Shown: positions 6,770 to 36,764 of the stretch, piece after piece
How positions within the stretch are numbered: the first letter of the stretch is position 1
Layout: each line of letters opens with the position of its first letter
From: Alphaproteobacteria bacterium
Lineage (GTDB): Bacteria; Pseudomonadota; Alphaproteobacteria; CACIAM-22H2
Direction: 5' to 3'
Assembly: GCA_017308135.1 (NCBI GenBank)
Contig: JAFKFM010000014.1
Span: forward strand, 65,507-129,506
DNA length: 64,000 nucleotides
Translations under genes and position numbers: made by a program
The notes under the pieces: model-generated
Databases searched by the model: none
Told to the model about the DNA's origin: nothing
The model's input: the letters and a program-made list of their open reading frames with translations, nothing else

Positions 6770-7464
<695 letters not shown>

Positions 7465-16530: not shown

Positions 16531-16631
16531 GCTCGGTGCTCCTTGCTGGATAGAAATCAGTTGGTTCGCCGCTTGAGATGGCGGCAGTCAGATACTGACG
16601 AAGCAAGAGCGATGCCAAGATCATCACCGTC

Positions 16632-18428
16632 TCAAGCTCCTGCTGATGCGACATAGGGCCGCCACCCACCAAATTCGGAAATGTCGCGCGCTCCATTGAT
16701 CGCTGCGGCTTCGACGAGAAAGCCTTTTTCGATGCGTCCGTCGGCAAGGCGAACTGTTCCGATGCTCATCGGCGGCGGCACAGTGGCGACGAAGCGCCCG
16801 AATGCCTCGAAGCTCAGCGACCAGATTTCAGCTTCAATCGAGGTACCTTCGTTGTCGCTGACGCGAAGCAAACCCGGCTTGTTAACGGTGCCGGGAAGAG
16901 CAAACAGACGATAATCCGGAGAGGTGATACAACGCTCCATCAAGTTCGCGCCCAAAATGCGCAACTCGTTGTTGAGAGGCATGCCGGACATGTGCGCGCC
17001 AACGACCACAAGCGCGACTTTGTCGGGATGCGACGCGTTGAGACCAAGATTCGTGTTTGCCTGACGTTTGATCCCCAGCGCTCCGAGCGGCAAATCGGCC
17101 TGTCGATGCAACCTGTCAGCAAACCCGGCGATCGTCGCGTCTTGCCTGGCCGGCGCCAGCAGCGTCACCCCGAAAGGCGTTCCATTTGCCGCGATGCGAT
17201 TGGGTACGGCGATGGCGGCCAGATCGAGCAGATTGGCGAAGTTGGTGTAGGTGCCGAGATTGCTGTTGAGGGCGATGGGATCGGCGTCGAGCTGCGCGAC
17301 CGTGTAGACAGCCGGTACGGTCGGCACCATCAGCATGTCGATGGTCTTCAGGATGCCGATAGCCTGCGTGCGCAATTCTGCGAGCCGATAGAATGCACGG
17401 AACGTATCGACGGCAGATGGGGTCTTTCCCGCCATGATGATATTGCGGGTGATTGGATGAATATCGGGGAGATGAGCTTCAATAAAAGCGCCGACCGCCG
17501 CGTAGCGTTCGGCGATCCAAGGCCCTTCGTAGAGAAGACGCGCTGTTTCCAGAAACGGGGTGAAATCGACCTCGATCACCTCTGCATTCAACTGGGCAAG
17601 ATTTTCAATCGCAGACGAAAATGAAGCTTCGGCTTGAGCATCTCCGAAGAAATGGAGATCCTGCAGCCGCGGGACGCCAATTTTGACGTGAGGATTTGAC
17701 GGAAGCAGCTCACCCGGCGGAATGGATCGCGAGAACGGATCCGATGGATCATGAGCGGCCATGACTTGCAGTGCGGCAAAGGCATCGTCGACAGTGAGCG
17801 CGAAGACGGACACGCAATCGAGCGAGCGACAGGCCGGGACGACGCCTGTGGTCGAGAGCATCCCGCGCGATGGCTTGAGGCCAACGATATTGTTCAGTCC
17901 GGCGGGGATGCGGCCTGAACCGGCAGTATCAGTGCCGAGAGCCAGCGGCACCAGGCCTGCTGCCACGGCGACGGCGGAGCCGGAGCTTGAGCCGCCGGGC
18001 ACGAGGTCCGGATTCAGGGGATTGCGCGGAATGCCGTAAGGCGAGCGCGTACCGACGAGGCCGGTGGCGAATTGATCGAGATTTGTCTTCCCGACAATAA
18101 TCGCGCCGGCTTTGCGCAACCCTCCGACAACAGTCGCATCATGCTGCGGCATATAGGTGAAGGAAGGGCAGGCCGCCGTGGTGGGCAGACCCGCGACGTC
18201 GATATTGTCCTTGATCGCAACAGGAATGCCGTAAAGCGGATAATCCTCAGGGTTCTTCGCGCCTAGTGCCCGCGCTTCGGCAAGCAGATCCGCTTCGTCA
18301 CGCAACGATATGAAGATAGCCGCATCGCCATGCGCGCGGATACGGGTGATCGTCCGCGCGATCGTCTGCTCGGGCGTAACGGTCCGTGCACGATGCGATG
18401 CAAGGATCGAGGCGACAGTTTCGGGCAC
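16632..18428 (-). CDS. Allophanate hydrolase-like amidase (amidase-signature domain plus AtzF-type C-terminal domain)
   Basis: Amidase signature KDNIDVAGLPTTAACP...GGSSSGSAVAVA. The 598-aa length and the C-terminal ~120-aa domain are typical of allophanate hydrolases. Confidence 0.75.
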   Translation of the reverse strand: MPETVASILASHRARTVTPEQTIARTITRIRAHGDAAIFISLRDEADLLAEARALGAKNPEDYPLYGIPVAIKDNIDVAGLPTTAACPSFTYMPQHDATVVGGLRKAGAIIVGKTNLDQFATGLVGTRSPYGIPRNPLNPDLVPGGSSSGSAVAVAAGLVPLALGTDTAGSGRIPAGLNNIVGLKPSRGMLSTTGVVPACRSLDCVSVFALTVDDAFAALQVMAAHDPSDPFSRSIPPGELLPSNPHVKIGVPRLQDLHFFGDAQAEASFSSAIENLAQLNAEVIEVDFTPFLETARLLYEGPWIAERYAAVGAFIEAHLPDIHPITRNIIMAGKTPSAVDTFRAFYRLAELRTQAIGILKTIDMLMVPTVPAVYTVAQLDADPIALNSNLGTYTNFANLLDLAAIAVPNRIAANGTPFGVTLLAPARQDATIAGFADRLHRQADLPLGALGIKRQANTNLGLNASHPDKVALVVVGAHMSGMPLNNELRILGANLMERCITSPDYRLFALPGTVNKPGLLRVSDNEGTSIEAEIWSLSFEAFGRFVATVPPPMSIGTVRLADGRIEKGFLVEAAAINGARDISEFGGWRPYVASAGA

Positions 18429-18824
18429 TTGTTATTCCTGCATCGGTTGCGCGAAATGCGCGTCTCCATGCAAGGATCATGCAATGAGTGTTCCAGTTTT
18501 CCGACGTGCGGATTGTGTGAGATCTTTAAGCAATGACGAATGATGCAATCAGATAGCAGCTTAGATAAAGGCGTTGATGCCTTGCCATGATTAAGCCAGT
18601 CGCGTCGCACGTATTGACGCAAACCATCAGATCGCGGTTAAGCGTATGATTTCGCCCGCGGAACCAGCTTGGTACTGGAATTTGTTCGGTTGCACATAAC
18701 GTAAGCAGTTCAGCGCATCGGAAATGAGCATCTGCTTCAGCCCATGTCGCCTGACCAAATGGAACGGCTGAGCATGCCCCTCCGAATCGATCCGAGAAGG
18801 CGGGTGAAACGGGACAGTCGCCAC

Positions 18825-18865
18825 TTGACGCCTTCTCACTTGGCATTATAGCTTTGCATCAAAGT
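18825..18865 (+). promoter_or_regulatory. Putative sigma70-type promoter (TTGACG-16-TATAGC) with overlapping dyad GCTTTG-cat-CAAAGT, upstream of the HpaB-like gene
   Basis: Read from the sequence. About 50 nt upstream of the ATG at 18916. Confidence 0.35.
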
Positions 18866-18915
18866 TAATTGAGTGGCCGCCATGCCGGTGAGCATTGCAG
18901 GAATTGGGGAGCATC

Positions 18916-20412
18916 ATGATCAAGAACGGCGAACAGCATATTGCCAGCCTGCGTGACGGCCGCGAGGTTTACCTCGATGGTGAACTGGTCAAGGACGTTA
19001 CCACCCATCCAGCCTATCGCGGAGCAGTCGCTTCAATCGGACGTATGTTCGACTTCCAGAGCGCGCCGGAAAATCGCGATCTCATGACGTTCGAGACTGA
19101 GACCGGAACCCGCGCCAACCGGATATGGGAATTGCCGGGCAGCTACGACGCGCTGGTCAAGCGCCGTAAGGGCCTTGAGGCATGGACCGAACTTCATGCG
19201 GGATTCATGGGCCGCGCGCCGGACCATGTCGCATCCTGCATCGCGGGAATGTTCATGGGGCTCGATGTGTTCGAGGCTTATAATCCCGAACGTGCAAAGG
19301 CTCTTGCTGACTATTATCGCCATGCGCGCGACAACGATCTCTATCTGACTTACGTCATCATCAATCCGCAGGCTGACCGCTCCAAGAGTGCGGCCCAGCA
19401 GGCTGATCCGTTCCTGTCGGCGGGCGTTGTTTCGCGTGAGGCAGATGGTCTGATCATCCGCGGGGCCAAGATGCTGGCCACCGGCGGAATCATGGCCAAC
19501 GAAGTTTTCGTCACCTGCATTCAACCGCTGCAGCCCGGCGACGAGAAGTACGCGGTGTCCTTCGCCATTCCGATGAATACCAAGGGTCTGAAGATCCTGT
19601 CGCGCAAATCCTATGAAGCCGGCGCGAATTCGGTATTCGATAGCCCGCTCTCCAGCCGCTTCGACGAAAACGACGCGGTGCTCTATTTCGATGACGTGAA
19701 GGTGCCGTGGGATCGCGTGTTCATCGATCAGGACATCGCGATGTGCCAGAAGCAGTTCCATGCGACGCCGGCGCATGTATATCAGAACTATCAGGCAATG
19801 ATCCGGCTGACGGTCAAGCTGCGCTTTCTTACCGGTGTCGCGCATCGCACTGCCGAGATCAATGGCATCGTCGGCTTCCCGCAGGTTCGGGAAATGCTCG
19901 GTCAGCTTGCCGCCGAAGTCTCGATGGTGGAAGCTTTCGTGCTCGGCATGGAAGCCAAGGGCACGCAGCGCGGTCAATACTTCACGCCAGACCGGGCGCT
20001 CCTGTACGGAGCACAGGTGCTGACCCAGCAGCTCTATGCAAAGGTCATCAACACACTGCGCGAACTCGCCGGCGGCGGCATGATCATGCTGCCTTCCTCG
20101 GTGAAGGATTTCGCAAATCCCGAACTGGCGGCGTTGATCGGAAAGACTCAGCAGTCGCCGGCGGCGAATGCCGTCGACAAGGTGAAGTTCTACAAGCTTG
20201 CCTGGGATGCGGTGGGGTCCGAGTTTGCATCGCGGCATTCGCAATACGAAATGTTCTTTGCCGGCGCGACCTTCGTCACCAAGGGCCATGCGTTCCGCAC
20301 CTTCGATTGGGCGCAGTCGACTGCATTGCTCGACAAGATGCTGTCCAGCTACGATCTGGCGGATGAACTCACAACCGGTGGAAAATCTCCGGCGTCCCGC
20401 GCGGTCGCTTGA
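18916..20412 (+). CDS. 4-hydroxyphenylacetate 3-monooxygenase (HpaB) family flavin-dependent monooxygenase, oxygenase component
   Basis: N-terminal LRDGREVYLDGELVKDVTTHPAYRGAVASIGRMFDF matches the HpaB family. 499 aa. GGGGAG RBS. Confidence 0.85.
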   Translation: MIKNGEQHIASLRDGREVYLDGELVKDVTTHPAYRGAVASIGRMFDFQSAPENRDLMTFETETGTRANRIWELPGSYDALVKRRKGLEAWTELHAGFMGRAPDHVASCIAGMFMGLDVFEAYNPERAKALADYYRHARDNDLYLTYVIINPQADRSKSAAQQADPFLSAGVVSREADGLIIRGAKMLATGGIMANEVFVTCIQPLQPGDEKYAVSFAIPMNTKGLKILSRKSYEAGANSVFDSPLSSRFDENDAVLYFDDVKVPWDRVFIDQDIAMCQKQFHATPAHVYQNYQAMIRLTVKLRFLTGVAHRTAEINGIVGFPQVREMLGQLAAEVSMVEAFVLGMEAKGTQRGQYFTPDRALLYGAQVLTQQLYAKVINTLRELAGGGMIMLPSSVKDFANPELAALIGKTQQSPAANAVDKVKFYKLAWDAVGSEFASRHSQYEMFFAGATFVTKGHAFRTFDWAQSTALLDKMLSSYDLADELTTGGKSPASRAVA

Positions 20413-20816
20413 TCGGATAGACCGAAGGTCGGCCATTATCGCCGACACCCTTCACGATGGATTGCGCGCTGTCGATCCGTCGTGATGTTGCGTGCTGAGG
20501 CTATATTTCTCGGCGTTCGGTAAGCGGAGCTTAGCCAAGATATCGAGCAGCCAGATGGTGCGGCGGATGATGATCCGCTGCGGCAGACGTTTACACAGCC
20601 GAACCATTCGTCCATGAATATAAAGGTGCATCTGTTCACCGCCGATGTCGTCATCGCCGGTTCAGATGCGGGGAGGGGTCGGCTGACCGAATGCCTACGA
20701 AGCTACTTGCCATGCGGCAAATGCGGCCCATGGGGCCTGCACGGGAAGCCATGTGTTGACGGAGGCGCGCCATTTCGATCCAAGCTGAAACCGAGCCGCG
20801 GCGACTGATCGTCGGC

Positions 20817-21380
20817 ATGACCGGAGCGTCCGGTGCCATCTATGGCGTCCGGCTTCTTCAGCTATTGCAGCAGACTGACGTGGAAACACATCTTGTGCTG
20901 AGCAAGTCGGCCAAGATCACCTTGGCGCAGGAACTGGATATCAAGGTTTCCGATGTCCTCGCGCTCGCCGATGTCGTCCATCAGGCGGAGAATATCGGAG
21001 CCACGATTTCCAGCGGATCGTTCGCCACCATGGGCATGATAATCGCGCCGTGCTCCATGCGCAGTATGGCGGAGATATCGTCTGGCGCAACATCTTCACT
21101 GGTGACGCGCGCCGCCGACGTCGTGTTGAAGGAGCGCCGTCGTCTGGTTTTGATGGTCCGCGAAACACCGCTGCATCTCGGTCATCTCAGATCGATGGTT
21201 GCGGTGACTGAAATGGGCGGGATCGTCTATCCGCCGGTTCCGGCCTTCTATGCCAAGCCGTCAAGCATCGATCAGATGGTCGATCAGACGTTGGGGCGCG
21301 TGCTGGATCTTTTCGCGATCAAGACGGATGTCGTCCGTCGCTGGGAAGGGCTTACTCCGAGTAAAAGTCGAGATCAGTGA
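20817..21380 (+). CDS. UbiX/PAD1-family flavin prenyltransferase (prFMN synthase). The true start is probably upstream (ATT at 20772).
   Basis: GMTGASGAIYGVRLLQ...CSMRSMAEISSG. The conserved RRLIVG strand is encoded in frame immediately upstream of the first ATG. Confidence 0.8.
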   Translation: MTGASGAIYGVRLLQLLQQTDVETHLVLSKSAKITLAQELDIKVSDVLALADVVHQAENIGATISSGSFATMGMIIAPCSMRSMAEISSGATSSLVTRAADVVLKERRRLVLMVRETPLHLGHLRSMVAVTEMGGIVYPPVPAFYAKPSSIDQMVDQTLGRVLDLFAIKTDVVRRWEGLTPSKSRDQ

Positions 21381-21418
21381 CGGGTTAATTTGCAACGGGT
21401 CTTTGGGGGAGGGCGCGA

Positions 21419-21949
21419 ATGGCAAAGGAAGGCGAGAATTTCTCGAACGAAAGCTGGTCTTTCGCGTTGCGTCTCTATGCGGAGTCCGGCGTGGCCGAAG
21501 CGTGCCTTCGTTTGCAATCTATTGCGGGCGTCGATGTGATGATGCTTCTTGCTGTCTTATTCGCTGCGTCGCAAAAGAATATCTCATTGTCCTTTGAAGA
21601 TGTGAAAGCACTGGACGGTGTTTGCCGTCCATGGCGCGAGCAGGTCGTTCATCCTCTGCGTGCGCTGCGAACCGCTTTGAAGTCTGGACCGGCGCCCGCT
21701 CCAACATCTGAAACCGACCAGCTGCGTTCGCGCATCAAGGCCGATGAGCTTCAGGCTGAGCAGATCGAGAACGATCTGCTCGGCAACTGGCTGCAGCATA
21801 AAACACGGGCACCGGCCGCACTCTCGCGACATCAGGTCCGCGGCATTCTGGCAGACGTTGTGCGGTGCTTTGGTGCCGATTCCTCAACGATCGAAGTCTC
21901 TGCTGAGGTCGATGTCATTCTCGGCGCGACCGCCAGGCTCTCTGCATAG
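21419..21949 (+). CDS. Conserved hypothetical protein, DUF2390/TIGR02444-like (recognised from memory only)
   Basis: N-terminal SWSFALRLYAESGVAEACLRLQSIAGVDVMMLLAVLFAA pattern. Lies between the UbiX-like and UbiD-like genes. Confidence 0.55.
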   Translation: MAKEGENFSNESWSFALRLYAESGVAEACLRLQSIAGVDVMMLLAVLFAASQKNISLSFEDVKALDGVCRPWREQVVHPLRALRTALKSGPAPAPTSETDQLRSRIKADELQAEQIENDLLGNWLQHKTRAPAALSRHQVRGILADVVRCFGADSSTIEVSAEVDVILGATARLSA

Positions 21950-21996
21950 TGCGGTGCACGCTGTTAATTTAATCAGCGAATGCTTGTTTCGTGTTC

Positions 21997-22024
21997 TTGA
22001 CTAGCTTTGTAATTTAACTATCGT
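21997..22024 (+). promoter_or_regulatory. Putative promoter/operator TTGACTAGCTTTGTAATTTAACTATCGT (-35 TTGACT, 16-nt spacer, -10 TATCGT) upstream of the UbiD-like gene
   Basis: A near-identical 24-nt motif recurs at 29115-29142. Confidence 0.45.
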
Positions 22025-22057
22025 CCAATGCAATTTCTTGTGGGGACAGGACCTGAT

Positions 22058-23482
22058 ATGGCGCAGCCGCAAATTCTCGATACTCGTTTTCGTTCGGCGC
22101 TGGCGCGTCTTGCCAAGAAAGATCGCATCCTGACGTTTGAAAAGACGGCGGACCCCCATCTTGAAATCGCAGCGGTCTTGAAGAAGCACGATGGCCGCCA
22201 AACGATGCTGTTTCCCGCAGTCAAGGGATACGATGTTCCGCTGGTCGGTAATCTTCTCAGCTCGAAGGAGAATTGCGAGGCTGCGTTTGATCTCGATTTT
22301 CGTGGCATCCGCGGATTGGTTCAGCGCGCGCTCGGCGGACCATTGCCGCCGGAACTCGTCACGAATGCGCCTTCGCAGGAGGTTGTTCTTAAAACCGGAT
22401 TCGATGTCACCAAGCTGCTGCCTGCGCTTTTCCACGCGCCGGGTGATGCAGGGCGCTACGTCACCGCGGGGATCGTGATCGTCAAAGATCCTGAGACGGG
22501 TATCTACAACGCATCCTATCATCGCTTGCAGTTGCTGGGGCCGGATCGCTTCGCAATCAAGCTCGACTTCGGCCGGCATCTTCGTCTGGCATTCGAACGC
22601 GCCAAAGCGCGCGGCAAGTCGCTGCCGGTCGCCGTCTGTATCGGTACGGATCTTGCGCTGCATTTTACCGCCGCCACGATGGGCTCGCAGATGCCTGAGA
22701 CGGCTGACGAGCTTGCAGTTGCCGGTGGCCTTGCGGGGCGGCCGTTGACGGTTGCGAAGGCCGTGTCGCAAGACATGATCGTTCCGGCCGAATGCGAGTT
22801 CGTGCTCGAAGGCGAAATCTCGATTGACGAGGTTGCTCCGGAAGGACCGTTCGGCGAGTTCGTCGGGTTCGCCGCTCCCGCGGCCGATGCCCCCATTCTG
22901 AAGGTCACGGCGGTGACCCACCGCATGCGGCCGATCTATCACGTCATCAACGGCTTCGGCCGCGAGACGATTATCCTGCGCAAATACGTGTTGGAAGCGA
23001 GCCTTCTCAAGGTATTGCAGGCTGCAATCCCGATCGTGACGGATGTTGAGATGACGTCGGGCGGTTTGCACCGTTTTCATGCAATCATTCAGGTCGAGAA
23101 GCGGAGCCGTCAGCACAATGGATTGCAGCGCAACGCCATTCTCGCGGCGTTCGGCGCGCTGAAGGATTTGGATCTGATCACTGTGGTCGATCACGATATC
23201 GATATTCGCGACCCGATCGATGTCGAGTACGCGATCGCAACACGCATGGAAGCGTCGAGCGATCTATTCCTCATTCCCGGCGCGCGTGGGCACGAATATG
23301 TTCGTGTCAGCAAGGATGGTATCCGCACCAAACTCGGTATCGACGCAACGGTGCCTTTTGAGGATCAGGACAAGTTCCGGCGTGTTGAATTTGCCAAAAC
23401 CGATATCGAGCTTGGCGATTTTACACCGGGTGCCAATACGGCGATCCAGTCGCTCGGGATCGACGGATCGAACATCGCATAA
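22058..23482 (+). CDS. UbiD-family prFMN-dependent (de)carboxylase
   Basis: The N-terminal region and the APEGPFGEFVGF motif match UbiD-family decarboxylases. 474 aa. Confidence 0.85.
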   Translation: MAQPQILDTRFRSALARLAKKDRILTFEKTADPHLEIAAVLKKHDGRQTMLFPAVKGYDVPLVGNLLSSKENCEAAFDLDFRGIRGLVQRALGGPLPPELVTNAPSQEVVLKTGFDVTKLLPALFHAPGDAGRYVTAGIVIVKDPETGIYNASYHRLQLLGPDRFAIKLDFGRHLRLAFERAKARGKSLPVAVCIGTDLALHFTAATMGSQMPETADELAVAGGLAGRPLTVAKAVSQDMIVPAECEFVLEGEISIDEVAPEGPFGEFVGFAAPAADAPILKVTAVTHRMRPIYHVINGFGRETIILRKYVLEASLLKVLQAAIPIVTDVEMTSGGLHRFHAIIQVEKRSRQHNGLQRNAILAAFGALKDLDLITVVDHDIDIRDPIDVEYAIATRMEASSDLFLIPGARGHEYVRVSKDGIRTKLGIDATVPFEDQDKFRRVEFAKTDIELGDFTPGANTAIQSLGIDGSNIA

Positions 23483-23535
23483 ATTCACGTTGCATAAGGC
23501 CGTCTCACTAAACCTCTCAACGATCGGAAACTCCA

Positions 23536-24504
23536 ATGAAGCGACTTCTTATAGCAGCCTTGCTTGTGGGCACCGGACTAAGCGTTTCTACTGCTTCCGC
23601 GCAGGAATGGCCGAGCAAGTCGGCGATCAAGCTCGTCGTGCCTTATGCTCCCGGAGGATATACCGACTCCGTCGGTCGTATTACTGCGCGTTTTCTTGAA
23701 AAAGAACTCGGGCAGACGGTGATCGTCGACAACCGTCCGGGTGGAGGCGGCATCGTCGGTTCTGATCTGGTGTCGAAGTCCCCCGGCGACGGCTATACGC
23801 TTTGCATCTGCAGCGTGGGCGCAATCTCGATTGCTCCGGTGGCGCAGACCACGTCCTACGATCCGGTTAAAAGCTTCAAGCCGATCAGCATCGTCAGCAC
23901 CATCCCGCAGATGGTAATCGTCAATCCGTCGCTGCCGATCAACTCGATGGACGATCTGGTTAAGTATGCCAAGGCCAATCCCGGAAAGCTCACCTTCGGC
24001 TCGAGCGGCGCCGGTGGCCTGATGTATTACTCGGTCGCGCTGTTCGATAGCCGCGTCGGTACAAAAATGACTCATGTGCCGTTCAAGGGCGGAGCGCCGG
24101 CAACTGCCGCCGTGGTCGCGGGCGAGGTGAACCTGTCTTTCACCAACATGACGGATGCCCTGCCGCAGCTCGAGGCGAAAACCGTTCGTGCTCTCGCAGT
24201 GACGTCGGCAGGCCGTAGCGAGTTCGCCCCGAAGGTTCCGACTGTCGCCGAGACTGTCCTGCCTGGATATGCGGTTGAGTCTTGGAACGGCGTCATGGCA
24301 CCGGCCTCGACGCCCGATGCGATTGTCACAAAGGTTTCCGATGCCCTCAAGAAGATGGCAGCCGATCCCGAGGTGAAGAAGCAGATGTCGGTCGCAGGCG
24401 CGTCGACCGTGTTCACGACGCCAGCCGAATATAGCGCGCAGATCGCCAAGGAAGTCGATCAGTGGCGGGCGCTGCTCAAGGAAATCTCGGAAAAGAAGAC
24501 CTGA
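23536..24504 (+). CDS. tctC: Tripartite tricarboxylate transporter substrate-binding protein (TctC/Bug family)
   Basis: Signal peptide. VVPYAPGGYTDSVGRI...DNRPGGGG motifs typical of Bug/TctC. Confidence 0.85.
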   Translation: MKRLLIAALLVGTGLSVSTASAQEWPSKSAIKLVVPYAPGGYTDSVGRITARFLEKELGQTVIVDNRPGGGGIVGSDLVSKSPGDGYTLCICSVGAISIAPVAQTTSYDPVKSFKPISIVSTIPQMVIVNPSLPINSMDDLVKYAKANPGKLTFGSSGAGGLMYYSVALFDSRVGTKMTHVPFKGGAPATAAVVAGEVNLSFTNMTDALPQLEAKTVRALAVTSAGRSEFAPKVPTVAETVLPGYAVESWNGVMAPASTPDAIVTKVSDALKKMAADPEVKKQMSVAGASTVFTTPAEYSAQIAKEVDQWRALLKEISEKKT

Positions 24505-24579
24505 GCTTCAGCGATCGGCGGGCGGTGAGCTAGGTCTCACCGCTCGCCTTCTGTCTTCCGGCGGCATGGGAGCTTGCCA

Positions 24580-25029
24580 ATGAAATCTATCGCTCGGCGT
24601 GGAAATACCGACGTCTATTCGGGATTTCTTCTCGTTGCCATCTCGACTGTGGCGCTGCTGTACATCCGCACTCTGACGATCGGTACCGTGCTCGACATGG
24701 GGCCGGGCTATTTTCCTCTCGGTCTTGCCTTGATTTTGCTGGGCATGGGACTTGTCCTTGTGGTCAAGGGCCTTGCCGCGACGGGCTCGCCGGTCGGCAC
24801 CATTCATCTCCGCCCGCTCTTCTTTATCCTGCTGTCCTTCGCGGTGTTCGGCCTGCTGATCGAACGTGCTGGCCTCGTGATTGCGGTTCTGATGCAGGTC
24901 GCCATCGCGCATTTCGCCTCGCGTGAAAGCACCTGGCTTGCGAGCGTCATTACGGGCATTGCACTGGCGGTCGCGTCTTCCGTCGTCTTTGTCTGGCTTC
25001 TCAAGATTCCGGTGAACGTGCTGCCATGA
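24580..25029 (+). CDS. tctB: Tripartite tricarboxylate transporter small permease (TctB family)
   Basis: About 150 aa, four hydrophobic segments. Located between the tctC and tctA genes. Confidence 0.7.
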   Translation: MKSIARRGNTDVYSGFLLVAISTVALLYIRTLTIGTVLDMGPGYFPLGLALILLGMGLVLVVKGLAATGSPVGTIHLRPLFFILLSFAVFGLLIERAGLVIAVLMQVAIAHFASRESTWLASVITGIALAVASSVVFVWLLKIPVNVLP

Positions 25030-26528
25030 CGGATATCTTCGCTGCTCTCGGCCACGGTTTCTCTGTCGCGGCCACGCCTCTCAACCTGTTGTTCTGTTTG
25101 ATCGGCGCCATTTGCGGCACGCTGATCGGCGTGTTGCCGGGACTCGGACCGGTGGCAACGATTTCTTTGCTTCTGCCGGCGACCTATGCACTCGATCCGG
25201 TGAGTGCGATCATCATGCTCGCGGGCATTTATTACGGTGCGCAGTATGGCGGTTCGACCACGGCGATCCTTGTCAACATTCCGGGCGAGTCCACGTCGGT
25301 GGTGACGGCTATCGATGGTTACAAGATGGCGCAGCAGGGGCGGGCGGGCGAGGCGCTTGCCATCGCCGCCATCGGCTCTTTCATCGCGGGCTGTTTTGGA
25401 ACCGTGATTATTGCGCTGCTCGGACCGCCGTTGGCCGTGATGACACAGAAATTTGCGTCGCCTGATTATTTTTCGCTGATGGTGCTGGGTCTCGTCTCCG
25501 CCGTTGTGCTCGCCAACGGATCGGCTTTTCATGCGATCGCGATGATCTTCCTCGGCCTGCTGCTTGGCATGGTCGGCATGGACCTCAATACCGGCGAAGC
25601 GCGCATGACGTTCGGTCTGATCGAATTGTCGGATGGCATCAACTTCGTTGCACTGGTGATGGGTCTGTTCGGTGTTGCCGAGGTCATTGCCAATCTGGAA
25701 GGCGTTTCAACGCGGATTGTCAATCACTCCAAGATCAACAGCATCTGGCCGTCGTTCAAGGTACTGCGTGGCGCCTGGGGCGCAGTCACGCGCGGGACCC
25801 TGTTGGGGACGTTATTCGGCATTCTGCCGGGTGGCGGCGCAACCATTGCATCTTTTTCCTCCTATGCGCTCGAGAAGCGCGTTTCGAAGACGCCGGAGCG
25901 CTTCGGCAATGGAGCTATTGAGGGCGTCGCGGGGCCGGAGTCGGCCAACAATGCGGCAGCACAGACGTCCTTCGTTCCGCTCCTGACCATGGGCATTCCG
26001 ACCAGCGCAACCATGGCGCTTCTGGTCGGTGCGCTGACCTTGCACGGCATTGCTCCGGGGCCGACCATCATTTCGCGCCAGCCGGATCTGTTCTGGGGGC
26101 TGATCGCAAGCATGTTCATCGGCAATGCGATGCTGGTGATCATCAACCTGCCGATGATTGGAATCTGGGTCCGTCTGCTCAACGTGCCTTACCGGATCCT
26201 TTATCTTGTCATCGTCGTGATTTGCGCGATTGGCGTTTTCTCGGTCAACAACTCGAGTTTCGACATTTACATGACGGTCGGGTTCACGGCGCTCGGCTAC
26301 ATCCTGCGCAAGCTGAATGCCGAACCGGCGCCATTGCTGATGGGATTTGTCCTCGGTCCGATGCTGGAGGAGAATTTCCGCCGCAGCCTGATCACGGCGC
26401 ATGGGGATCCGACCGTGTTTCTGCAGAGGCCGATTAGCCTCGTTCTGCTGCTGTTGTCACTGGGATTGCTGATTTCGATCCTGATGCCTTCCATCAGCAA
26501 GCGCCGCCAGGAAGTCTTTCAGGAGTGA
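25026..26528 (+). CDS. tctA: Tripartite tricarboxylate transporter large permease (TctA family)
   Basis: 500-aa polytopic membrane protein. ATGA overlap with the tctB gene. Confidence 0.85.
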   Translation: MTDIFAALGHGFSVAATPLNLLFCLIGAICGTLIGVLPGLGPVATISLLLPATYALDPVSAIIMLAGIYYGAQYGGSTTAILVNIPGESTSVVTAIDGYKMAQQGRAGEALAIAAIGSFIAGCFGTVIIALLGPPLAVMTQKFASPDYFSLMVLGLVSAVVLANGSAFHAIAMIFLGLLLGMVGMDLNTGEARMTFGLIELSDGINFVALVMGLFGVAEVIANLEGVSTRIVNHSKINSIWPSFKVLRGAWGAVTRGTLLGTLFGILPGGGATIASFSSYALEKRVSKTPERFGNGAIEGVAGPESANNAAAQTSFVPLLTMGIPTSATMALLVGALTLHGIAPGPTIISRQPDLFWGLIASMFIGNAMLVIINLPMIGIWVRLLNVPYRILYLVIVVICAIGVFSVNNSSFDIYMTVGFTALGYILRKLNAEPAPLLMGFVLGPMLEENFRRSLITAHGDPTVFLQRPISLVLLLLSLGLLISILMPSISKRRQEVFQE

Positions 26529-26573
26529 CGACGGCTCGTTGTCGCGCCTCCAATTGAGATCGGGACTAACAAC

Positions 26574-28250
26574 ATGAACAAGCATCAATCGGCGCAGGCC
26601 GTGACCGGAGAAGCCGGCTTGCGCAATGGCGGGCAAATTCTGGTGTCTGCGTTGCGGCGCAATGGAGCCGATCGCATGTTCGGCGTGCCTGGTGAAAGCG
26701 CACTGCCGATTTTCGACGCTGTTTATGAGCCTGATGCTGGTGTCCGGTTCATTATGTGCCGGCACGAGGCGACGGCGTCCCACATGGCGGAGGCTGACGG
26801 TAAGCTCTCCAAGCGGCCCGGTATTTGCGTGGTAAGCCGTGGCCCAGGCGCGATGCAGGCGGCGATAGGTTTACATACGGCATGGCAGGATTCCACGCCG
26901 ATGATCTTGATTGTCGGCCAGGTGCCGCGCAGCCATCGCGGCCGCGAAGCCTTTCAGGAAATGGATTATAGCCGGACGTTCGATGATATGACGAAGTGGG
27001 CGGTGGAGATCGACTCCGTCGATCGCATTCCCGAGATTGTCAGCCGTGCTTTCCATGTCGCGATGCAGGGGCGCCCGGGACCAGTGGTCTTGTCGATACC
27101 CGAAGACGTGCTGAGCGCGACAAGCAGTGTCGCCGATGCTGCGCCGGCGACGACCATTGATGCCGCGCCGTCGGCCCAACAGATGGCCGATGTACGTCGG
27201 CTTCTGCAGCAGGCGCAGCGTCCATTGGTTATTGTTGGGAATCTCGGTTGGAATGTAGAGGCGGCTTCCAGGTTCCGCACCTTCGTGGAGCAAAACAATC
27301 TGCCGGTTGTCGCGGGATTCCGGTCGCAGGACGTGCTCGACAATCGCTCCGAACAATATATCGGCGACATCAGCCTCGGTTGCAGCCGGCCGCTGATGGC
27401 GCGGGTAAAGACGGCGGACCTGCTTCTTGTGATCGGTGATCGTCTCGGCGACGTCACCACCAATCATTATTCGCTGTTCGATGTGCCGACGCCGAAGCAG
27501 GCACTGATTCATGTTTTCCCCGGGCCGGAAGAACTCGGGCGAGTCTATGTGCCGACACTCGGCATTCCTGCCAATTCCTCTCGCTTTGCCGAAGCTCTCG
27601 CGCAGCTCGATCCTCTCGATCATTCGTCCTGGGATGCGTGGCGGGCGGAATCGCGTCTGGCCTATGTCGAGTATCAGGCGCCGCGACCGGATTTTCCGCC
27701 TTTCGATCTTGCGAAGGTGATTGATCACCTCAACACCGCATTACCTGACGATGCGATCGTAACAAACGGAGCCGGCAATTACACGGTCTGGCTGCACCGT
27801 TATTATCGCTATCGCGGCCTTGGCACCCAGATCGCTCCGAAGTCCGGCACCATGGGGTATGGACTGCCCGCCGCGGTCGCCGCGCAACTGCGCCATCCCG
27901 AACGCCGGGTTGTCTGTCTCGCCGGGGATGGCTGTTTCATGATGGCCTCGCAGGAATTCGCAACCGTCGTTCAGCAGAAGCTCCCGGTCGTCATCATCAT
28001 CGTCAACAACACGATGTACGGCTCGATCCGCATGCATCAGGAATTGAGCTTTCCGAACCGCCCCAGCGGGACGGATCTGCTGAATCCGGATTTTGCAGCG
28101 CTGGCGAAATCCTATGGTGCGTATGGCGAAGCCATCGACGCACATGACGATTTCCCGGCGGCCTTTTCGCGTGCGGTTAACGCGGGTGGCCCCGCGATCA
28201 TCGAACTTCGCGTCAACCGCAAGCAACTGACTCCGGATCGCTCGCTCTGA
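26574..28250 (+). CDS. Thiamine pyrophosphate-dependent enzyme, acetolactate synthase/benzoylformate decarboxylase superfamily
   Basis: N-terminal TPP pyrimidine-binding domain. C-terminal GDGCFMM...NN TPP-binding motif. 558 aa. Confidence 0.8.
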   Translation: MNKHQSAQAVTGEAGLRNGGQILVSALRRNGADRMFGVPGESALPIFDAVYEPDAGVRFIMCRHEATASHMAEADGKLSKRPGICVVSRGPGAMQAAIGLHTAWQDSTPMILIVGQVPRSHRGREAFQEMDYSRTFDDMTKWAVEIDSVDRIPEIVSRAFHVAMQGRPGPVVLSIPEDVLSATSSVADAAPATTIDAAPSAQQMADVRRLLQQAQRPLVIVGNLGWNVEAASRFRTFVEQNNLPVVAGFRSQDVLDNRSEQYIGDISLGCSRPLMARVKTADLLLVIGDRLGDVTTNHYSLFDVPTPKQALIHVFPGPEELGRVYVPTLGIPANSSRFAEALAQLDPLDHSSWDAWRAESRLAYVEYQAPRPDFPPFDLAKVIDHLNTALPDDAIVTNGAGNYTVWLHRYYRYRGLGTQIAPKSGTMGYGLPAAVAAQLRHPERRVVCLAGDGCFMMASQEFATVVQQKLPVVIIIVNNTMYGSIRMHQELSFPNRPSGTDLLNPDFAALAKSYGAYGEAIDAHDDFPAAFSRAVNAGGPAIIELRVNRKQLTPDRSL

Positions 28251-28346
28251 GGAGGTCATAAGCAGGCCGGGAACACGGATCAGCAGGTATGACGCAGCCA
28301 AGGGAGCGCGAATATTGCGTTGTCCCTCGTTGAATTAATACCTACA

Positions 28347-28383
28347 GTTAGCCAGTAAGCTGAATTGATTCCAGTCGAACTAT
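28347..28383 (+). promoter_or_regulatory. Half-sites related to the island operator (AGTTAGCCAGTAAGCT and AACTATC) immediately upstream of the MarR gene RBS
   Basis: Matches to AGTTAGCTAGTA (29131-29142) and AACTATC (22016-22022). Confidence 0.3.
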
Positions 28384-28398
28384 CAGGAGTTGCCCCGC

Positions 28399-28977
28399 GT
28401 GCCGGGATCGACGGTGACAAAACCAGAACTGATGCCCGGAGGGGATGATGCGGTTTTTCGCACCTTCATTCACGACTTTCTGGCATTTAGCGCGCGTGTC
28501 GACCAATGCCGGGTTGGATTCGGCGAGCGTCTCGGAATTTCAGGCATCGCATATACGACCCTGATATCGATCGCCTACCTGCAGGGTGAGAAGGGAGTCG
28601 GCGTAAGCCGCGTTGCCGAGCACCTTCATCTGTCGGGCGCATTTGTCACCATTGAAGTGTCGAAGCTGGTCGAAGCCGATCTCGTGAAGAAGCGGGTCAA
28701 CGAAAGCGACCGCCGTCGCGTCTTGCTGACGGTGACGCCCAAAGCGAAGCGGCTGCTCGATGAGCTTGCCAGCATTCAGGCTCCCGTCAACGACGCTCTT
28801 TTCGGCTGTCTCAGCGCCGCCGAGTTTGCGCTGTTGTCATCGATGCTGGCGCGCCTCGTCCCTTGCGGCGACAAGGCGGTTTCGATGCTCGCTTTCACGT
28901 CGAAGTGGTCGAAGGCGCCAGCTGTGAAGTCTGCGAATTCCATAGAGAAGCGCAAAAGCAAAAGGCGTGCAGCCTGA
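28399..28977 (+). CDS. MarR-family transcriptional regulator
   Basis: Winged helix: LISIAYLQGEKGVGVSRVAEHLHLSGAFVTIEVSKLVEADLVKKR. AGGAG RBS. GTG start proposed; the ORF is open from 28390. Confidence 0.7.
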   Translation: MPGSTVTKPELMPGGDDAVFRTFIHDFLAFSARVDQCRVGFGERLGISGIAYTTLISIAYLQGEKGVGVSRVAEHLHLSGAFVTIEVSKLVEADLVKKRVNESDRRRVLLTVTPKAKRLLDELASIQAPVNDALFGCLSAAEFALLSSMLARLVPCGDKAVSMLAFTSKWSKAPAVKSANSIEKRKSKRRAA

Positions 28978-29114
28978 TCGGCTGCAAGACGTCCTTCCTC
29001 CAATCCAATTGTTGACCGACCAGCGGTTGATCGCGTTTGCACGCTGCAGAGTGGCTGATGTTCGCTGTGCTGCAGCACCGAAATTTTTCCTCGCGGGGAC
29101 GAGTTGCGTGCTGC

Positions 29115-29142
29115 TTGACTAGCTTTGTAAGTTAGCTAGTAT
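29115..29142 (+). promoter_or_regulatory. Putative promoter/operator TTGACTAGCTTTGTAAGTTAGCTAGTAT with a perfect 7-9-7 inverted repeat (ACTAGCT...AGCTAGT) between -35 and -10
   Basis: Read from the sequence. Lies upstream of the aldehyde dehydrogenase gene with a ~165-nt leader. Confidence 0.5.
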
Positions 29143-29306
29143 TTTTTGATATTTCGACGGTCGGAGAAACGGCGCGCGGCGTCGGCATTCCGGTGTGCTT
29201 TTGCAAGCCGTTGAGGTGGCTAAGTCCAAAACTTCTGGCGCGAATTTTCGTCGCGCTGTTTCCCTGACGAATCGTAAACGTCCTTTGCTGCTGGACCCGT
29301 GGGTGA

Positions 29307-30776
29307 ATGATGCAAAACTTCGACGTGATTTCGTGTTTCATCGGCGGCAAGAGCGAGCAGGGCGGCAACTATTTCGAGAAGCGCTATCCGGCGACCGGAG
29401 AGGTCATTGCGAAGGTGGTCGAGTCGGACCAGGCGCAGGTTGATCGTGCTGTCGATGCTGCGCGCAAAGCGCTGTCAGGTCCCTGGAAGAACACCACCAT
29501 GCTCGAGCGTGCTGCGTTCCTGGAACGCCTTGCAAACAAGCTCGATGAGCACATCGATGAACTCGTCGCCGAAGAAATCAAGGATACCGGGAAGCCCATA
29601 ACCGCGACCCGTAATGTCGAAATTCCGCGCGCTATCGCGAATTTCCGGGCGTTCGCGGCGATTGCCCGCGAAGATCATCTCAAGCCATTTCAGACGAATA
29701 TGCTCGCGGGAGGCGTCGCGGACAACATGGTGCTGCGACAGCCAATCGGAGTCATCGGGATTGTCGCGCCGTGGAATCTCCCGCTGCTGCTTCTGACCTG
29801 GAAGGTTGCGCCAGCGCTTGTCTGCGGCAACACCATTGTCGTGAAGCCTTCGGAGCATTCACCGCGCACCGCTGTTCTGCTGGCTAAAATCGCGCATGCG
29901 GTCGGGCTGCCTGATGGCGTGCTCAACGTCGTGCACGGTCACGGCGCGGATGCGGCCGGAAGTTTCCTCGTGTCGCATTCCGATGTCGGTGCGATCACGT
30001 TCACGGGCGAAACACGAACGGGCGAGGTAATCATGAAGGCTGCGGCCATGGGTCCGCGCCCGGTTTCGCTTGAACTTGGTGGAAAGAACGCCGCGGTCAT
30101 TTTCGATGATGCTGACTTCGATGCCGCAGCTGCGGGTACGGTCCGCTCCATGTTCGACAATTGCGGGCAGGTGTGTCTGACGACCGAGCGCATCTTTGTG
30201 CATCGCAAGATATTTGCGCCGTTTGTCGAGCGTCTTGCGGATCTCACGAAGAAGCTTCAGCCGGGCGACCCGCACCTTGCGGTGACGACCTTGGGGCCGG
30301 CGATCAGTGATATTCAACGCGACAAGGTTCTGGGCTTTTACCGCCGGGCCGAGCAGGAAGGCGCCCAGGTCGTCACCGGCGGAGGCGCGTTGCAGATGCC
30401 TGCGTCTTTCGCGGATGGCTATTGGGTCGCGCCGACGATCTGGACCGGCCTGCCTGACGATGCGGAAGTCTGTCAAAGAGAGGTGTTCGGCCCCTGCGGA
30501 CATATTTCGGTTTTCGATGATGACGACGAAGTCGTGAAGCGGGTCAACAATTCGAGTTACGGTCTCGCATCGACGGTGTGGACGAAAAACATGGAGCGGG
30601 CACGCAAGGTCGCCACGGAAATCGAAACCGGGACGGTATGGGTGAACTGCTGGCGGGTGCGCGATGAGCGGGCGGCTTTCGGCGGCTTCAAGCGTTCAGG
30701 CATCGGCCGGGAAGGCGGGACGTGGTCGCTCGATTTCTACTCCGAATTGAAGACGGTTTGCGCTTATACGTCGTGA
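29307..30776 (+). CDS. NAD(P)-dependent aldehyde dehydrogenase, hydroxymuconic-semialdehyde dehydrogenase-like
   Basis: ALDH motifs ELGGKNAAVIF and catalytic Cys in FDNCGQVC. 489 aa. Confidence 0.85.
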   Translation: MMQNFDVISCFIGGKSEQGGNYFEKRYPATGEVIAKVVESDQAQVDRAVDAARKALSGPWKNTTMLERAAFLERLANKLDEHIDELVAEEIKDTGKPITATRNVEIPRAIANFRAFAAIAREDHLKPFQTNMLAGGVADNMVLRQPIGVIGIVAPWNLPLLLLTWKVAPALVCGNTIVVKPSEHSPRTAVLLAKIAHAVGLPDGVLNVVHGHGADAAGSFLVSHSDVGAITFTGETRTGEVIMKAAAMGPRPVSLELGGKNAAVIFDDADFDAAAAGTVRSMFDNCGQVCLTTERIFVHRKIFAPFVERLADLTKKLQPGDPHLAVTTLGPAISDIQRDKVLGFYRRAEQEGAQVVTGGGALQMPASFADGYWVAPTIWTGLPDDAEVCQREVFGPCGHISVFDDDDEVVKRVNNSSYGLASTVWTKNMERARKVATEIETGTVWVNCWRVRDERAAFGGFKRSGIGREGGTWSLDFYSELKTVCAYTS

Positions 30777-30895
30777 GTCCGCATGTCCGGCTGAGGCGCA
30801 TTGCGTTTGCCGCTGCCCACAACAACAGCAGCGTCTGCCCTATATTTGGTGCAGAAAGGCGGCGGGAGTGGCTTGCTAGGCAGAGGCAAAACGTG

Positions 30896-30928
30896 TTGAC
30901 TGCCGTCATATTGGCTTTATATTAAAGC
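30896..30928 (+). promoter_or_regulatory. Putative promoter TTGACT-17-TATATT with perfect dyad GCTTTA-tat-TAAAGC overlapping the -10
   Basis: Read from the sequence. About 50 nt upstream of the flavin reductase GTG start. Confidence 0.45.
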
Positions 30929-30977
30929 TAATATTGCAAATGAACATGGGGCTGGTTTCGTCAATGAGGTTGCGTCC

Positions 30978-31496
30978 GTGCAGGATCGTGCTTTCAGGCG
31001 TACGTTAGGGGAATTTGCGACCGGCGTTGCCGTGGTGACGGCGCGCGGCAGGGGCGATGATCTGGTCGGAATGACGATGAGTTCGTTCAATTCCGTTTCC
31101 GTCGATCCTCCGCTTGTCCTCTTTAGCGTCGATCGAAAGGCTCTCAGCCTGCCGGCGATGCAGGAAGCCAAAGGCTTCGCAATCAACGTGCTGGCGCGCG
31201 AGCAGGAAAACGTTTCCAATCAATTCGCGCGGGCTCTCTCCAACAAATGGGATCAGGTGAAGACGAGCGTCGGTCATGCCGAAGCTCCGCTGATTTCCGG
31301 CGCGCTAGCTCATTTTGAGTGCGAACCCTATGCGACTTACGATGGCGGCGACCACGTTATTTTCGTGGTGCGCGTCGTTCGCTATTCATCGCATCCGTCC
31401 TCGCCCGCGCCGCTGGTTTTCTTCCGTGGCCGCTATCGCGATTTGGTTGATGAAGCCGAGCGGACACCCGAGTGGCCACTCCCCATTCATTACTGA
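30978..31496 (+). CDS. NAD(P)H-flavin reductase (HpaC/flavin reductase-like domain)
   Basis: FRRTLGEFATGVAVVTA...GMTMSSFNSVSVDPPLVLFSV matches flavin reductase domains. Confidence 0.8.
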   Translation: MQDRAFRRTLGEFATGVAVVTARGRGDDLVGMTMSSFNSVSVDPPLVLFSVDRKALSLPAMQEAKGFAINVLAREQENVSNQFARALSNKWDQVKTSVGHAEAPLISGALAHFECEPYATYDGGDHVIFVVRVVRYSSHPSSPAPLVFFRGRYRDLVDEAERTPEWPLPIHY

Positions 31497-31708: not shown

Positions 31709-32089
31709 ATGCCAGTGAACAAGAAGCATGACGAATTCCACACGATTGACCTGAAGAGCGGTTGGGAAACCCCGGCAGGCTATCCGGCAGGCATCCAGCA
31801 AAAGATTCTGTCCGGTTCTCTTGATGAGACAAACAACCGCGGCACACGGACGCGGCTGCTTCGCTTTGAACCGGGCGTCTACACAACTGCGCCGTTCTCC
31901 CACGACTATTGGGAAGAAGTGTATCTCATCTCCGGCGATCTGATTGTTGGCAATGATGCGAACGGCGAAGGTGGCGAGAGCTTTCAGCCGAACACCTACG
32001 CCTGCCGCCCGCCGCATGCGAAGCATGGACCGTTCAAGTCCATCAATGGCTGCATGCTCGTTGAAATCCATTATTTCGATCCGGTCTGA
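31709..32089 (+). CDS. Cupin-domain protein
   Basis: 126 aa. The two-His cupin motif region YWEEVYLISGDL...HAKHGP. Confidence 0.65.
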   Translation: MPVNKKHDEFHTIDLKSGWETPAGYPAGIQQKILSGSLDETNNRGTRTRLLRFEPGVYTTAPFSHDYWEEVYLISGDLIVGNDANGEGGESFQPNTYACRPPHAKHGPFKSINGCMLVEIHYFDPV

Positions 32090-33441: not shown

Positions 33442-33494
33442 TCCGTGACAGCTGGCCTCCCGCGACATATCCGCGGGAGGCCGTGCCGGAAAGC

Positions 33495-36069: not shown

Positions 36070-36764
36070 CATTGGCGCTCGACAAGGTCGCGGTCTCGAT
36101 CGAAGGCGTTCCGGTCCTGCGCGGCGTCTGCTGCGAGATTCTTGAACGCAAGACGACGATTCTGATCGGACGCAATGGCGCGGGAAAGACCACCACGCTG
36201 CGCGCGATCATGGGGCTTCTGCCGCTCGACGGCGGCGACATCCGCCTCGATGGCGAGGATTTGCGCAAGCAGCCGGCGCATTATCGCGCGCGTGCCGGAA
36301 TTGGCTACGCGCCCGAAGACCGTCGTCTGGTGCCGGAAATGAGCGTCGAGGAAAACATCCGTCTTCCGGGGCTTGCGCTTGATCTCGACAAGGCCGAGAT
36401 CAAGCTACGGCTCGAAGAGATCTATACATTTCTTCCGCAGTTGCATGTGATGCGGTTGCGGCCGGGCGGCGGGGTGTCCGGCGGTCAGGGCAAGATGGTG
36501 GCGCTGGGCCGCGCGCTGATGGTCGCACGCAAGGTGCTGCTGTTGGACGAACCGTTTCAGGGGCTTGCTCCGGCGCTCGCGCTGGACTATGCGCGGACGC
36601 TGGGCGAACTGCGCAAGCACCGCCCGGATCTGGCGCTGTTCATCACCGAATCCACGCCCGCGCTACTCAATGCGATCGCCGATCGCACCTTGCGGATCGA
36701 GCGCGGCGAAATTTCCGAACAATCCACGCATCTAGCGGAGAACGAGAATGCTTCTGCAGTTTGA
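36066..36764 (+). CDS. ABC transporter ATP-binding protein (LivF-like)
   Basis: GRNGAGKTTTL Walker A. Confidence 0.85.
   Translation: MTLALDKVAVSIEGVPVLRGVCCEILERKTTILIGRNGAGKTTTLRAIMGLLPLDGGDIRLDGEDLRKQPAHYRARAGIGYAPEDRRLVPEMSVEENIRLPGLALDLDKAEIKLRLEEIYTFLPQLHVMRLRPGGGVSGGQGKMVALGRALMVARKVLLLDEPFQGLAPALALDYARTLGELRKHRPDLALFITESTPALLNAIADRTLRIERGEISEQSTHLAENENASAV

Follow-up and report, generated by a model that had tools for sequence, protein, structure and literature searches.

The DNA analyzed here, a 64,000-nucleotide (nt) stretch of contig JAFKFM010000014.1 from an alphaproteobacterium (hereafter, the window), contains a cluster of about 20 kb that encodes the HpaB-like oxygenase and flavin reductase (Fre) components of a two-component flavin monooxygenase, together with a UbiD-family decarboxylase, transporters and a MarR-family regulator. 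Four promoters of this cluster overlap sites of one operator family that are present far beyond the chance expectation, are conserved both in sequence and in promoter-overlapping position in many genomes, and co-occur with a distinct subfamily of MarR proteins. These features suggest, with a probability that we put at roughly 70%, that a single local MarR repressor occludes all four promoters through this operator family and is released by a metabolite of the pathway.

A 19-bp palindrome at four promoters

An earlier note on this DNA described two dyads of the form GCTTTR-N3-YAAAGY that overlap the promoters of the oxygenase and reductase genes, GCTTTGCATCAAAGT at 18851–18865 (S1) and GCTTTATATTAAAGC at 30914–30928 (S2). 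Both dyads are indeed located at these positions and are the only two occurrences of the pattern in the window, compared to 0.12 expected from shuffled sequences, none of 100 of which reached this count; when two mismatches are tolerated, the additional matches are at the chance level. This pattern was defined post hoc, and a stronger, independent test is provided by a 21-nt weight matrix that was built solely from sites found upstream of fre in other genomes. In the window, this foreign-site matrix detects exactly four sites, all at promoter-like positions of the cluster: S1, S2 and two further sites, E1 and E2, upstream of ubiD and of the aldehyde dehydrogenase gene (aldh), respectively (Table 1). 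The fifth-best score in the window is 6.6 bits, and the highest in 50 shuffles is 15.5. Across the 1.35 Mb of loci that we fetched, the matrix yields 42 matches of at least 16 bits vs a single one in a shuffle.

The conserved operator is longer than the dyads described previously, which form the core of a 19-bp palindrome, TAGCTTTR-N3-YAAAGCTA (TAGCTTT-N5-AAAGCTA). S1 departs from this palindrome at a single base of its right half, a C that is nearly invariant elsewhere, and S2 at a single base of its left half, an A that is invariant elsewhere. E1 and E2 belong to the two copies of a 24-nt element, the repeat CTTGACTAGCTTTGTAAnTTAnCTA at 21996–22020 (before ubiD) and 29114–29138 (before aldh), and the GCTTTG core that the earlier note had pointed out within this element is found in both copies.

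The positions of the sites relative to the promoters differ. The hpaB promoter has the hexamers and the 16-nt spacer originally proposed, but its −10 is weak, with TATAGC ending in C and lacking the terminal T, and is absent from the calls of a consensus scan that recovers the other three of the four operator-bearing promoters; the last 4 nt of this −10 (TAGC, 18849–18852) fall within the 19-bp operator S1. For fre, the proposed hexamers are present as well, but the spacer between them is 16 nt rather than 17. Each of E1 and E2 begins at the final base of the −35, occupies the 16-nt spacer and reaches 2 nt into the −10 of ubiD or aldh. The dyads overlap core promoter elements, and the proposal that they place the oxygenase and reductase genes under one control is supported.

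Conservation in related clusters

A scan with the UbiD protein, with one genome per species, returned 79 loci, of which the closest are from Tardiphaga and Bradyrhizobium (~90% amino-acid identity), followed by Afipia and Xanthobacteraceae (73–75%). In every genome with a Tardiphaga-type or Afipia-type cluster, the region upstream of fre consists of CTTGACAG, a spacer of ~17 nt, TAATAT and then AGCTTTGTTATAAAGCTA, with the site forming a perfect 19-bp palindrome, TAGCTTT-N5-AAAGCTA, immediately 3′ of the −10. When 15 orthologous fre promoters are anchored at the dyad, the core contains 1.69 bits per column, compared to 0.20 in the upstream and 0.26 in the downstream flank. Positions 2–8 (TAGCTTT) are invariant among the fre-upstream sites, whereas among positions 14–20 (AAAGCTA), five are invariant and the other two are conserved in 12 of the 13 distinct sites. 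Scanning metagenomes with the MarR protein yielded further examples, including marR-fre tandems with the site in the short intergenic gap; a near-identical strain locus (99.7–100% identical DNA), found by exact look-up of the MarR protein, is uninformative for conservation.

The earlier note had named the loss of the dyads from orthologous regions as the outcome that would speak against its claim. On the contrary, the palindrome is kept at the promoter of the fre-hpaB operon in every relative that has the cluster, and this conservation favors, at the level of sequence comparison, the suggestion that one factor co-represses the oxygenase and the reductase.

The same alignments bear on the possibility that the dyads form RNA hairpins in 5′ leaders, with a role in transcript stability or attenuation, and are not DNA operators. 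S1 and S2 can fold, at −5.3 kcal/mol (z = −2.6) and −8.6 kcal/mol (z = −3.5), respectively, but any palindrome does, and E1 does not fold (0 kcal/mol). Across genomes, the arms are invariant, without the compensatory changes expected of a helix, and it is the center that varies; the −10 directly adjoins the dyad in most relatives, which would place the transcription start within it; and there is no Rfam match over positions 18000–39000. Function as RNA hairpins thus appears highly improbable.

The genes fre and hpaB are neighbors in one operon in relatives from several alphaproteobacterial lineages and in Burkholderia, so the window carries a rearranged version of the cluster, in which fre is parted from hpaB by 10.5 kb and has a dyad of its own. 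All four putative starts of transcription units with a predicted promoter carry an operator site in this rearranged cluster, and that each of them has kept or gained a site despite the rearrangement argues for function.

A MarR subfamily linked to the operator

The MarR homolog is the only regulator that travels with the cluster. Its gene adjoins the cluster or sits inside it in Tardiphaga, Bradyrhizobium, Afipia, Xanthobacteraceae, Propylenella, Methylocella and Burkholderia, with identity to the window protein ranging from 86% down to 38%. The operator site is present in 19 of the 24 long loci that encode a MarR homolog, compared to 1 of the 27 that do not (Fisher p = 2.6e-8, uncorrected for kinship). 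The helix-turn-helix and wing segment is 96–48% identical among these proteins, vs 73–24% in the C-terminal remainder, and the recognition helix, SGAF(V/I)TIE(V/I)xKL, and the DRRRV motif of the wing are almost invariant among the cluster-linked MarRs, including those with an overall identity of 38–50%. A profile of 14 cluster-linked homologs matched 58 PDB sequences, all described as MarR-family or MarR-type by the depositors (best E = 6.1e-14), and the window protein on its own also matches MarR structures. Three hallmarks of a MarR repressor and its operator are therefore found together, namely, the MarR signature, a promoter-overlapping 19-bp pseudopalindrome, and the linkage of the regulator to its putative targets.

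Several observations weigh against the assignment of the four sites to this MarR. The co-occurrence statistic is inflated by shared ancestry. In a search with the single window sequence, Pfam MarR_2 is matched at E = 9.5e-6 and 26.1 bits, under the gathering score of 27. Immediately upstream of marR, the window has no matrix site, and autoregulation would thus depend on transcription reading through from the ubiD promoter. A lineage of metagenome contigs that encode MarRs 74–83% identical to the window protein (L091–L096; 63% in L102) has no matrix match of at least 7 bits within 1.5 kb of the marR gene; the stretches of these contigs that we examined carry none of the cluster genes, and the targets of this lineage may be located elsewhere. 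Finally, all four window sites depart, by one position each, from what is otherwise conserved, and a difference between two types of sites that is conserved across genera, described below, could mean a second reader.

Alternatively, the dyads could be operators of another regulator, either the product of one of the LysR genes in the window (8106–9008 and 12806–13873) or a protein encoded elsewhere, and one related plasmid cluster combines a GntR gene with a separate palindrome. However, the LysR and GntR candidates, unlike the MarR subfamily, are not conserved beside the cluster in relatives; the GntR-type palindrome, CAGTGAAATATCACTG, is absent from the 64-kb window; and a palindrome of 17–19 bp overlapping a promoter is the usual format of MarR operators. 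We consider it improbable that a regulator other than the local MarR reads the sites, and retain this MarR as the likely binder.

In the plasmid in question (NZ_CP084753.1), the different palindrome, CAGTGAAATATCACTG or CAGTGATATTTCACTG, is found upstream of fre and in the intergenic region between the DUF2848 and ATP-binding cassette (ABC) transporter genes, beside the GntR gene (~4030–4060 of locus L105 and ~12330–12350 of L106), and probably represents a second regulator layered on the cluster in that organism.

Several other MarR-related features were noticed. The region upstream of the window marR gene (28330–28375), where the matrix scan finds no match to the MarR operator, shares the short blocks AATACCnACAGTTAGCC and AATTGATTCC with the Xanthobacteraceae-type loci L019 and L087 and may be the marR gene's own promoter. 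A second MarR gene in the window (1102–1638, minus strand) adjoins a LivK-type ABC transporter (2536–7464) and encodes an unrelated recognition helix, IKHHTAVELVDRM; an AT-rich sequence just upstream of it (1689–1709) has a weak matrix score of 6.6 bits. Bradyrhizobium-type loci contain a paralogous pair, in which a MarR that is 41–45% identical (helix SGAFVTTVTNKL) is encoded beside a second hpaB (56–57%), with a related but distinct palindrome, ATAGCTTCGGATATTAGCTAT or ATAGCTTCGTATAGTAGCTAT (~1900–2400 in L012, L015, L020 and L022; ~16230–16340 in L014 and L029). These paralog sites would fit a scheme in which the outer TAGCT is read by conserved MarR residues and the inner bases by variable ones.

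Two probable variants of one operator framework

The 13 distinct fre-upstream sites yield the consensus aTAGCTTTGTwaYAAAGCTAw (type A, with S1 and S2), and the 13 distinct ubiD-upstream sites yield CTAGCTTTGtnrCTTAGCTAT (type B, with E1 and E2). In the relatives, the asymmetric ubiD-upstream variant has the form CTTGAC-TAGCTTTG-N3-CTTAGCTAT, and the two 24-nt elements of the window are the same kind of variant, TAGCTTTG-N3-NTTAGCTA. TAGCTTT in the left half and AGCTA in the right half are invariant and common to both types, the main difference being at positions 14–15 (AA in type A vs TT in type B); in addition, position 13 of type B is C. CTTGAC is invariably fused to type B sites, which are followed by a TAnnnT hexamer and so occupy the 16-nt spacer of an internal promoter ahead of ubiD, whereas type A is located at the −10 or just past it; in several genomes, as well as at S2, the −35 lies only 11–13 nt upstream of the site, with the −10 in the AT-rich center of the dyad.

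The earlier note regarded the hpaB and fre dyads as a second operator class, apart from the 24-nt element, and one could imagine two factors, one regulator acting on these dyads and another regulator, or another oligomeric form, acting on the ubiD and aldh elements. The difference in the right half (AAAGCTA vs TTAGCTA, with C at position 13) and the difference in placement are both conserved across genera, which speaks for this view. The matrix built from type A sites alone nevertheless recovers the type B sites in nearly all relatives and, in the window, both 24-nt elements and nothing else besides S1 and S2. Mixed forms exist as well: the fre-upstream site of plasmid NZ_CP084753.1, TAGCTTTATAACTTAGCTA, has a left half of type A and a right half of type B (−35 11 nt upstream), and the fre-upstream site of Burkholderia cenocepacia is a reversed type B. 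Furthermore, one regulator family is syntenic with both types, loci with a single MarR (L002–L006, L009, L018 and L019) carry both, and the recognition helix of the second MarR of the window is unrelated. Separate factors for the two types of sites therefore seem unlikely to us, if less so than the alternatives considered above. Thus, the distinction drawn in the earlier note holds as a conserved difference between variants but not as a division into classes, given the shared TAGCTTT/AGCTA framework, the hybrid sites and the single syntenic regulator: S1/S2 and E1/E2 are most likely two conserved variants, or affinity tiers, of one operator framework.

Proposed mechanism

In the mechanism that we infer from the sequences, a dimer of the MarR encoded in the cluster would bind one operator at each of the four promoters and thereby exclude RNA polymerase. 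At the promoter of the likely transcription unit hpaB-ubiX-DUF2390, the bound site would overlap the −10 and the transcription start; at those of ubiD-tctCBA-tpp-marR (tpp, the thiamine-diphosphate enzyme gene) and of aldh, it would fill the spacer between the −35 and the −10; and at that of fre-cupin-ABC-DUF2848-amidase, the −10 would be inside the dyad. The boundaries of these units are drawn from gene spacing, the absence of other sites and orthologous arrangements only. A substrate or intermediate of the pathway, probably a (hetero)aromatic carboxylate or the phenolic compound formed from it, would then bind MarR and, by analogy with the behavior of the family, cause its release, resulting in co-induction of the oxygenase, the reductase and the rest of the cluster.

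Gene content and likely function of the cluster

The operators, promoters and genes of the cluster are listed in Table 1.

Table 1 Operators, promoters and genes of the cluster, in window coordinates
Feature	Position	Strand	Details
Operator S1	18849-18867		TAGCTTTGCATCAAAGTTA; type A; overlaps with the proposed −10 of hpaB and with its likely transcription start; matrix position 18848, 23.5 bits
Operator E1	22002-22020		TAGCTTTGTAATTTAACTA; type B, asymmetric; first 24-nt element; matrix position 22001, 19.0 bits
Operator E2	29120-29138		TAGCTTTGTAAGTTAGCTA; type B; second 24-nt element; matrix position 29119, 17.9 bits
Operator S2	30912-30930		TGGCTTTATATTAAAGCTA; type A; fre −10 in dyad center; matrix position 30911, 26.1 bits
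hpaB promoter (proposed)	18825-18852	+	TTGACG-16-TATAGC; position inferred by comparison with orthologous promoters
ubiD promoter	21997-22024	+	TTGACT-16-TATCGT
aldh promoter	29115-29142	+	TTGACT-16-TAGTAT
fre promoter	30896-30923	+	TTGACT-16-TATATT; 10/12 consensus matches
HpaB-like oxygenase component, two-component flavin monooxygenase	18916-20412	+	ATG at 18916, preceded by GGGGAG
UbiX-family flavin prenyltransferase (HmfG-like)	20817-21380	+	
DUF2390 / TIGR02444 protein	21419-21949	+	in relatives, conserved between ubiX and ubiD
UbiD-family decarboxylase	22058-23482	+	closest solved structure HmfF (6h6v), then AnInD
TctC, TctB, TctA tripartite carboxylate transporter	23536-26528	+	
Thiamine-diphosphate enzyme	26574-28250	+	acetolactate-synthase-like PRK08199 subfamily
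MarR-family regulator	28399-28977	+	192 amino acids; GTG start; proposed repressor for the four operators
Aldehyde dehydrogenase (aldh)	29307-30776	+	slightly under the 2-hydroxymuconic semialdehyde dehydrogenase cutoff
Flavin reductase component (fre)	30978-31496	+	
Small cupin (Cupin_7)	31709-32089	+	homolog annotated DUF4437 in a RefSeq plasmid; after hpaB in relatives
LivK-type ABC transporter, five genes	32146-36764	+	tightly packed behind the cupin gene
DUF2848 protein	36748-37431	+	probable distal gene of the S2 transcription unit
Amidase	37476-38771	+	probable distal gene of the S2 transcription unit

The enzymes encoded in the cluster suggest that a (hetero)aromatic carboxylate is taken up and decarboxylated, with hydroxylation, ring opening and amide hydrolysis as the subsequent steps. 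Induction by 4-hydroxyphenylacetate-like substrates, which the earlier note had brought up, is not supported. The oxygenase scores 350 against the equivalog cutoff of 480.2 for HpaB-1 and 305.9 against 885.2 for HpaB-2, the aldehyde dehydrogenase scores 467.2 against the HpaE cutoff of 638.35, and the MarR protein reaches only 22.8 bits with the HpaR model TIGR02337 (cutoff 121.2) and is not an HpaR equivalog. No homologs of hpaD, hpaG, hpaH or hpaI are present among the annotated genes of the cluster, which contains an HmfF-like UbiD/UbiX pair in place of the hpa meta-cleavage genes.

HpaR of the hpa operon of Escherichia coli W is a MarR-family repressor of 4-hydroxyphenylacetate catabolism. 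The two systems are alike in that a MarR-type regulator is linked to a cluster for an HpaB-type oxygenase and a flavin reductase, in that the catabolic promoter has palindromic operators, and in that an aromatic acid is the expected inducer. They differ in the regulator and oxygenase scores given above and in gene content: in place of meta-cleavage genes, the window cluster has UbiD/UbiX, TctCBA, the thiamine-diphosphate enzyme, DUF2390, cupin, DUF2848 and amidase genes. Other MarR repressors of aromatic-acid catabolism include PcaV, CouR/HcaR/FerR, BadR and IacR. Like the regulator proposed here, these are homodimeric winged-helix repressors that bind a pseudopalindrome of 16–20 bp over the −35/−10 region, are encoded beside their targets and are released by an aromatic ligand of the pathway. 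PcaV (4fht) is among the matches of the MarR profile (E = 1.4e-7), but there is no close sequence relationship to the characterized MarRs, the best PDB match being an unnamed MarR (E = 6e-14), and the window system differs from them in having four operators, in two conserved variants, over a 20-kb cluster.

HmfF and HmfG are the 2,5-furandicarboxylate decarboxylase and its prenyltransferase, and AnInD is an indole-3-carboxylate decarboxylase. Among solved structures, HmfF (6h6v, E = 1.7e-93) is the closest to the window UbiD, and AnInD (7p9q, E = 5.6e-60), the substrate of which differs from that of HmfF, comes second; ubiX is located two genes upstream of ubiD, with the DUF2390 gene between them. 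Unlike the HmfF/HmfG system, the window module is coupled to the HpaB/Fre monooxygenase, cupin, amidase and thiamine-diphosphate enzyme, and hmfABCDE of the furoyl-CoA pathway are missing from the annotated genes of window parts 18–46704 and 50530–51366. The paper on AnInD gives no genomic context. Routes from indole-3-carboxylate via isatin to anthranilate, or through hydroxypyridine carboxylates, were weighed by enzyme logic alone; nothing favors either, and we claim neither. A Cupriavidus UbiD cluster for lumazine or xanthine-8-carboxylate was rejected as a match: the text describing it makes no mention of a MarR, a flavin reductase or a thiamine enzyme, and the decarboxylase encoded in it is unlike HmfF. 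The literature that we searched yielded no description of the operator string, the gene combination, DUF2848, DUF4437 or a GraR-type operator.

Upstream of hpaB and divergent from it, across an intergenic region of 487 nt, are genes for an allophanate hydrolase (16632–18428) and an NMT1-type ABC transporter (13945–18428 together, minus strand); these genes are not orthologs of the amidase gene transcribed divergently from fre in relatives (30% identity). An open reading frame that abuts S1 (18526–18846, minus strand) has no Pfam match, failed the filter for codon-position G+C content (GC3) and was treated as non-coding; the stretch 18400–18906, which contains it, shows no nucleotide similarity to two related loci.

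A rearranged, mosaic cluster

The order of genes in the Tardiphaga and Bradyrhizobium clusters is marR (minus strand) | fre hpaB cupin ubiX DUF2390 ubiD tctCBA tpp, and in those of Afipia and Xanthobacteraceae, marR, DUF2848, amidase (minus strand) | fre hpaB cupin ubiD tctCBA aldh tpp ubiX DUF2390. Comparison of window positions 18400–39000 with one locus of each type (L002 and L018) shows that the window cluster is a mosaic. The part from ubiD through tpp is ~79% identical in DNA to Tardiphaga-type loci, and E1 resembles the Tardiphaga-type ubiD promoter, whereas marR and aldh resemble the Xanthobacteraceae/Afipia type (79%), the MarR adjacent to the Tardiphaga cluster being only ~48% identical in protein sequence. 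Over 52 nt, the aldh promoter (29113–29163) shares 85% identity with the promoter that precedes ubiD in the Xanthobacteraceae-type locus L018.

Between hpaB and ubiX, the window contains ~340 nt (20413–20752) with no called gene and no homology to relatives, at the location of the cupin gene in the relatives; the cupin gene of the window instead follows fre, and this segment is probably a scar of the rearrangement. Clusters of the Xanthobacteraceae/Afipia type contain a third conserved site, ATAGCTTTCTATCAAAGCAGT, directly after the marR stop codon and upstream of the DUF2848 gene (5057–5077 of L018; also in L019, L021, L086 and L087), whereas the DUF2848 gene of the window is instead distal in the putative fre operon. 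A megablast search of plasmids with the cluster produced only a 216-bp match, in Cupriavidus.

Discussion

The core that recurs across Alpha- and Betaproteobacteria is fre-hpaB-cupin-DUF2848, which is joined by the amidase and the LivK-type ABC transporter in the window and on plasmid NZ_CP084753.1; in alphaproteobacterial relatives that have the complete cluster, the HmfF-like UbiD/UbiX, DUF2390, TctCBA and the thiamine-diphosphate enzyme are present in addition, with or without the aldehyde dehydrogenase. Tentatively, and with clearly less confidence than in the local repressor itself, we suggest that an undescribed catabolic regulon, widespread in Alpha- and Betaproteobacteria, is marked by the operator together with the MarR subfamily. 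The core of this regulon would comprise Fre, HpaB, the DUF4437-type cupin, DUF2848 and the amidase, and would be extended by UbiD/UbiX, DUF2390, TctCBA and the thiamine-diphosphate enzyme in alphaproteobacteria with the full cluster, the substrate possibly being an N- or O-heteroaromatic carboxylate. If so, the two operator variants would provide for a two-tier response, whereby one repressor releases uptake and decarboxylation, on the one hand, and the core oxygenase module, on the other hand, at different inducer levels.

Promoter occlusion by a MarR repressor is a textbook mechanism, and the value of the finding lies mainly in the handle it gives on an uncharacterized regulon. About 20 genes are connected by a single 19-bp motif and a single MarR subfamily into a testable regulon that includes three domains of unknown function (DUF2390, DUF2848 and the DUF4437-type cupin) along with an HmfF-like decarboxylase dependent on prenylated flavin mononucleotide. 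In the course of rearrangement, the cluster would have kept its oxygenase and reductase co-regulated through a separate copy of the site on each new transcription unit, and the operator offers a way to find the inducer and, hence, the substrate of the pathway.

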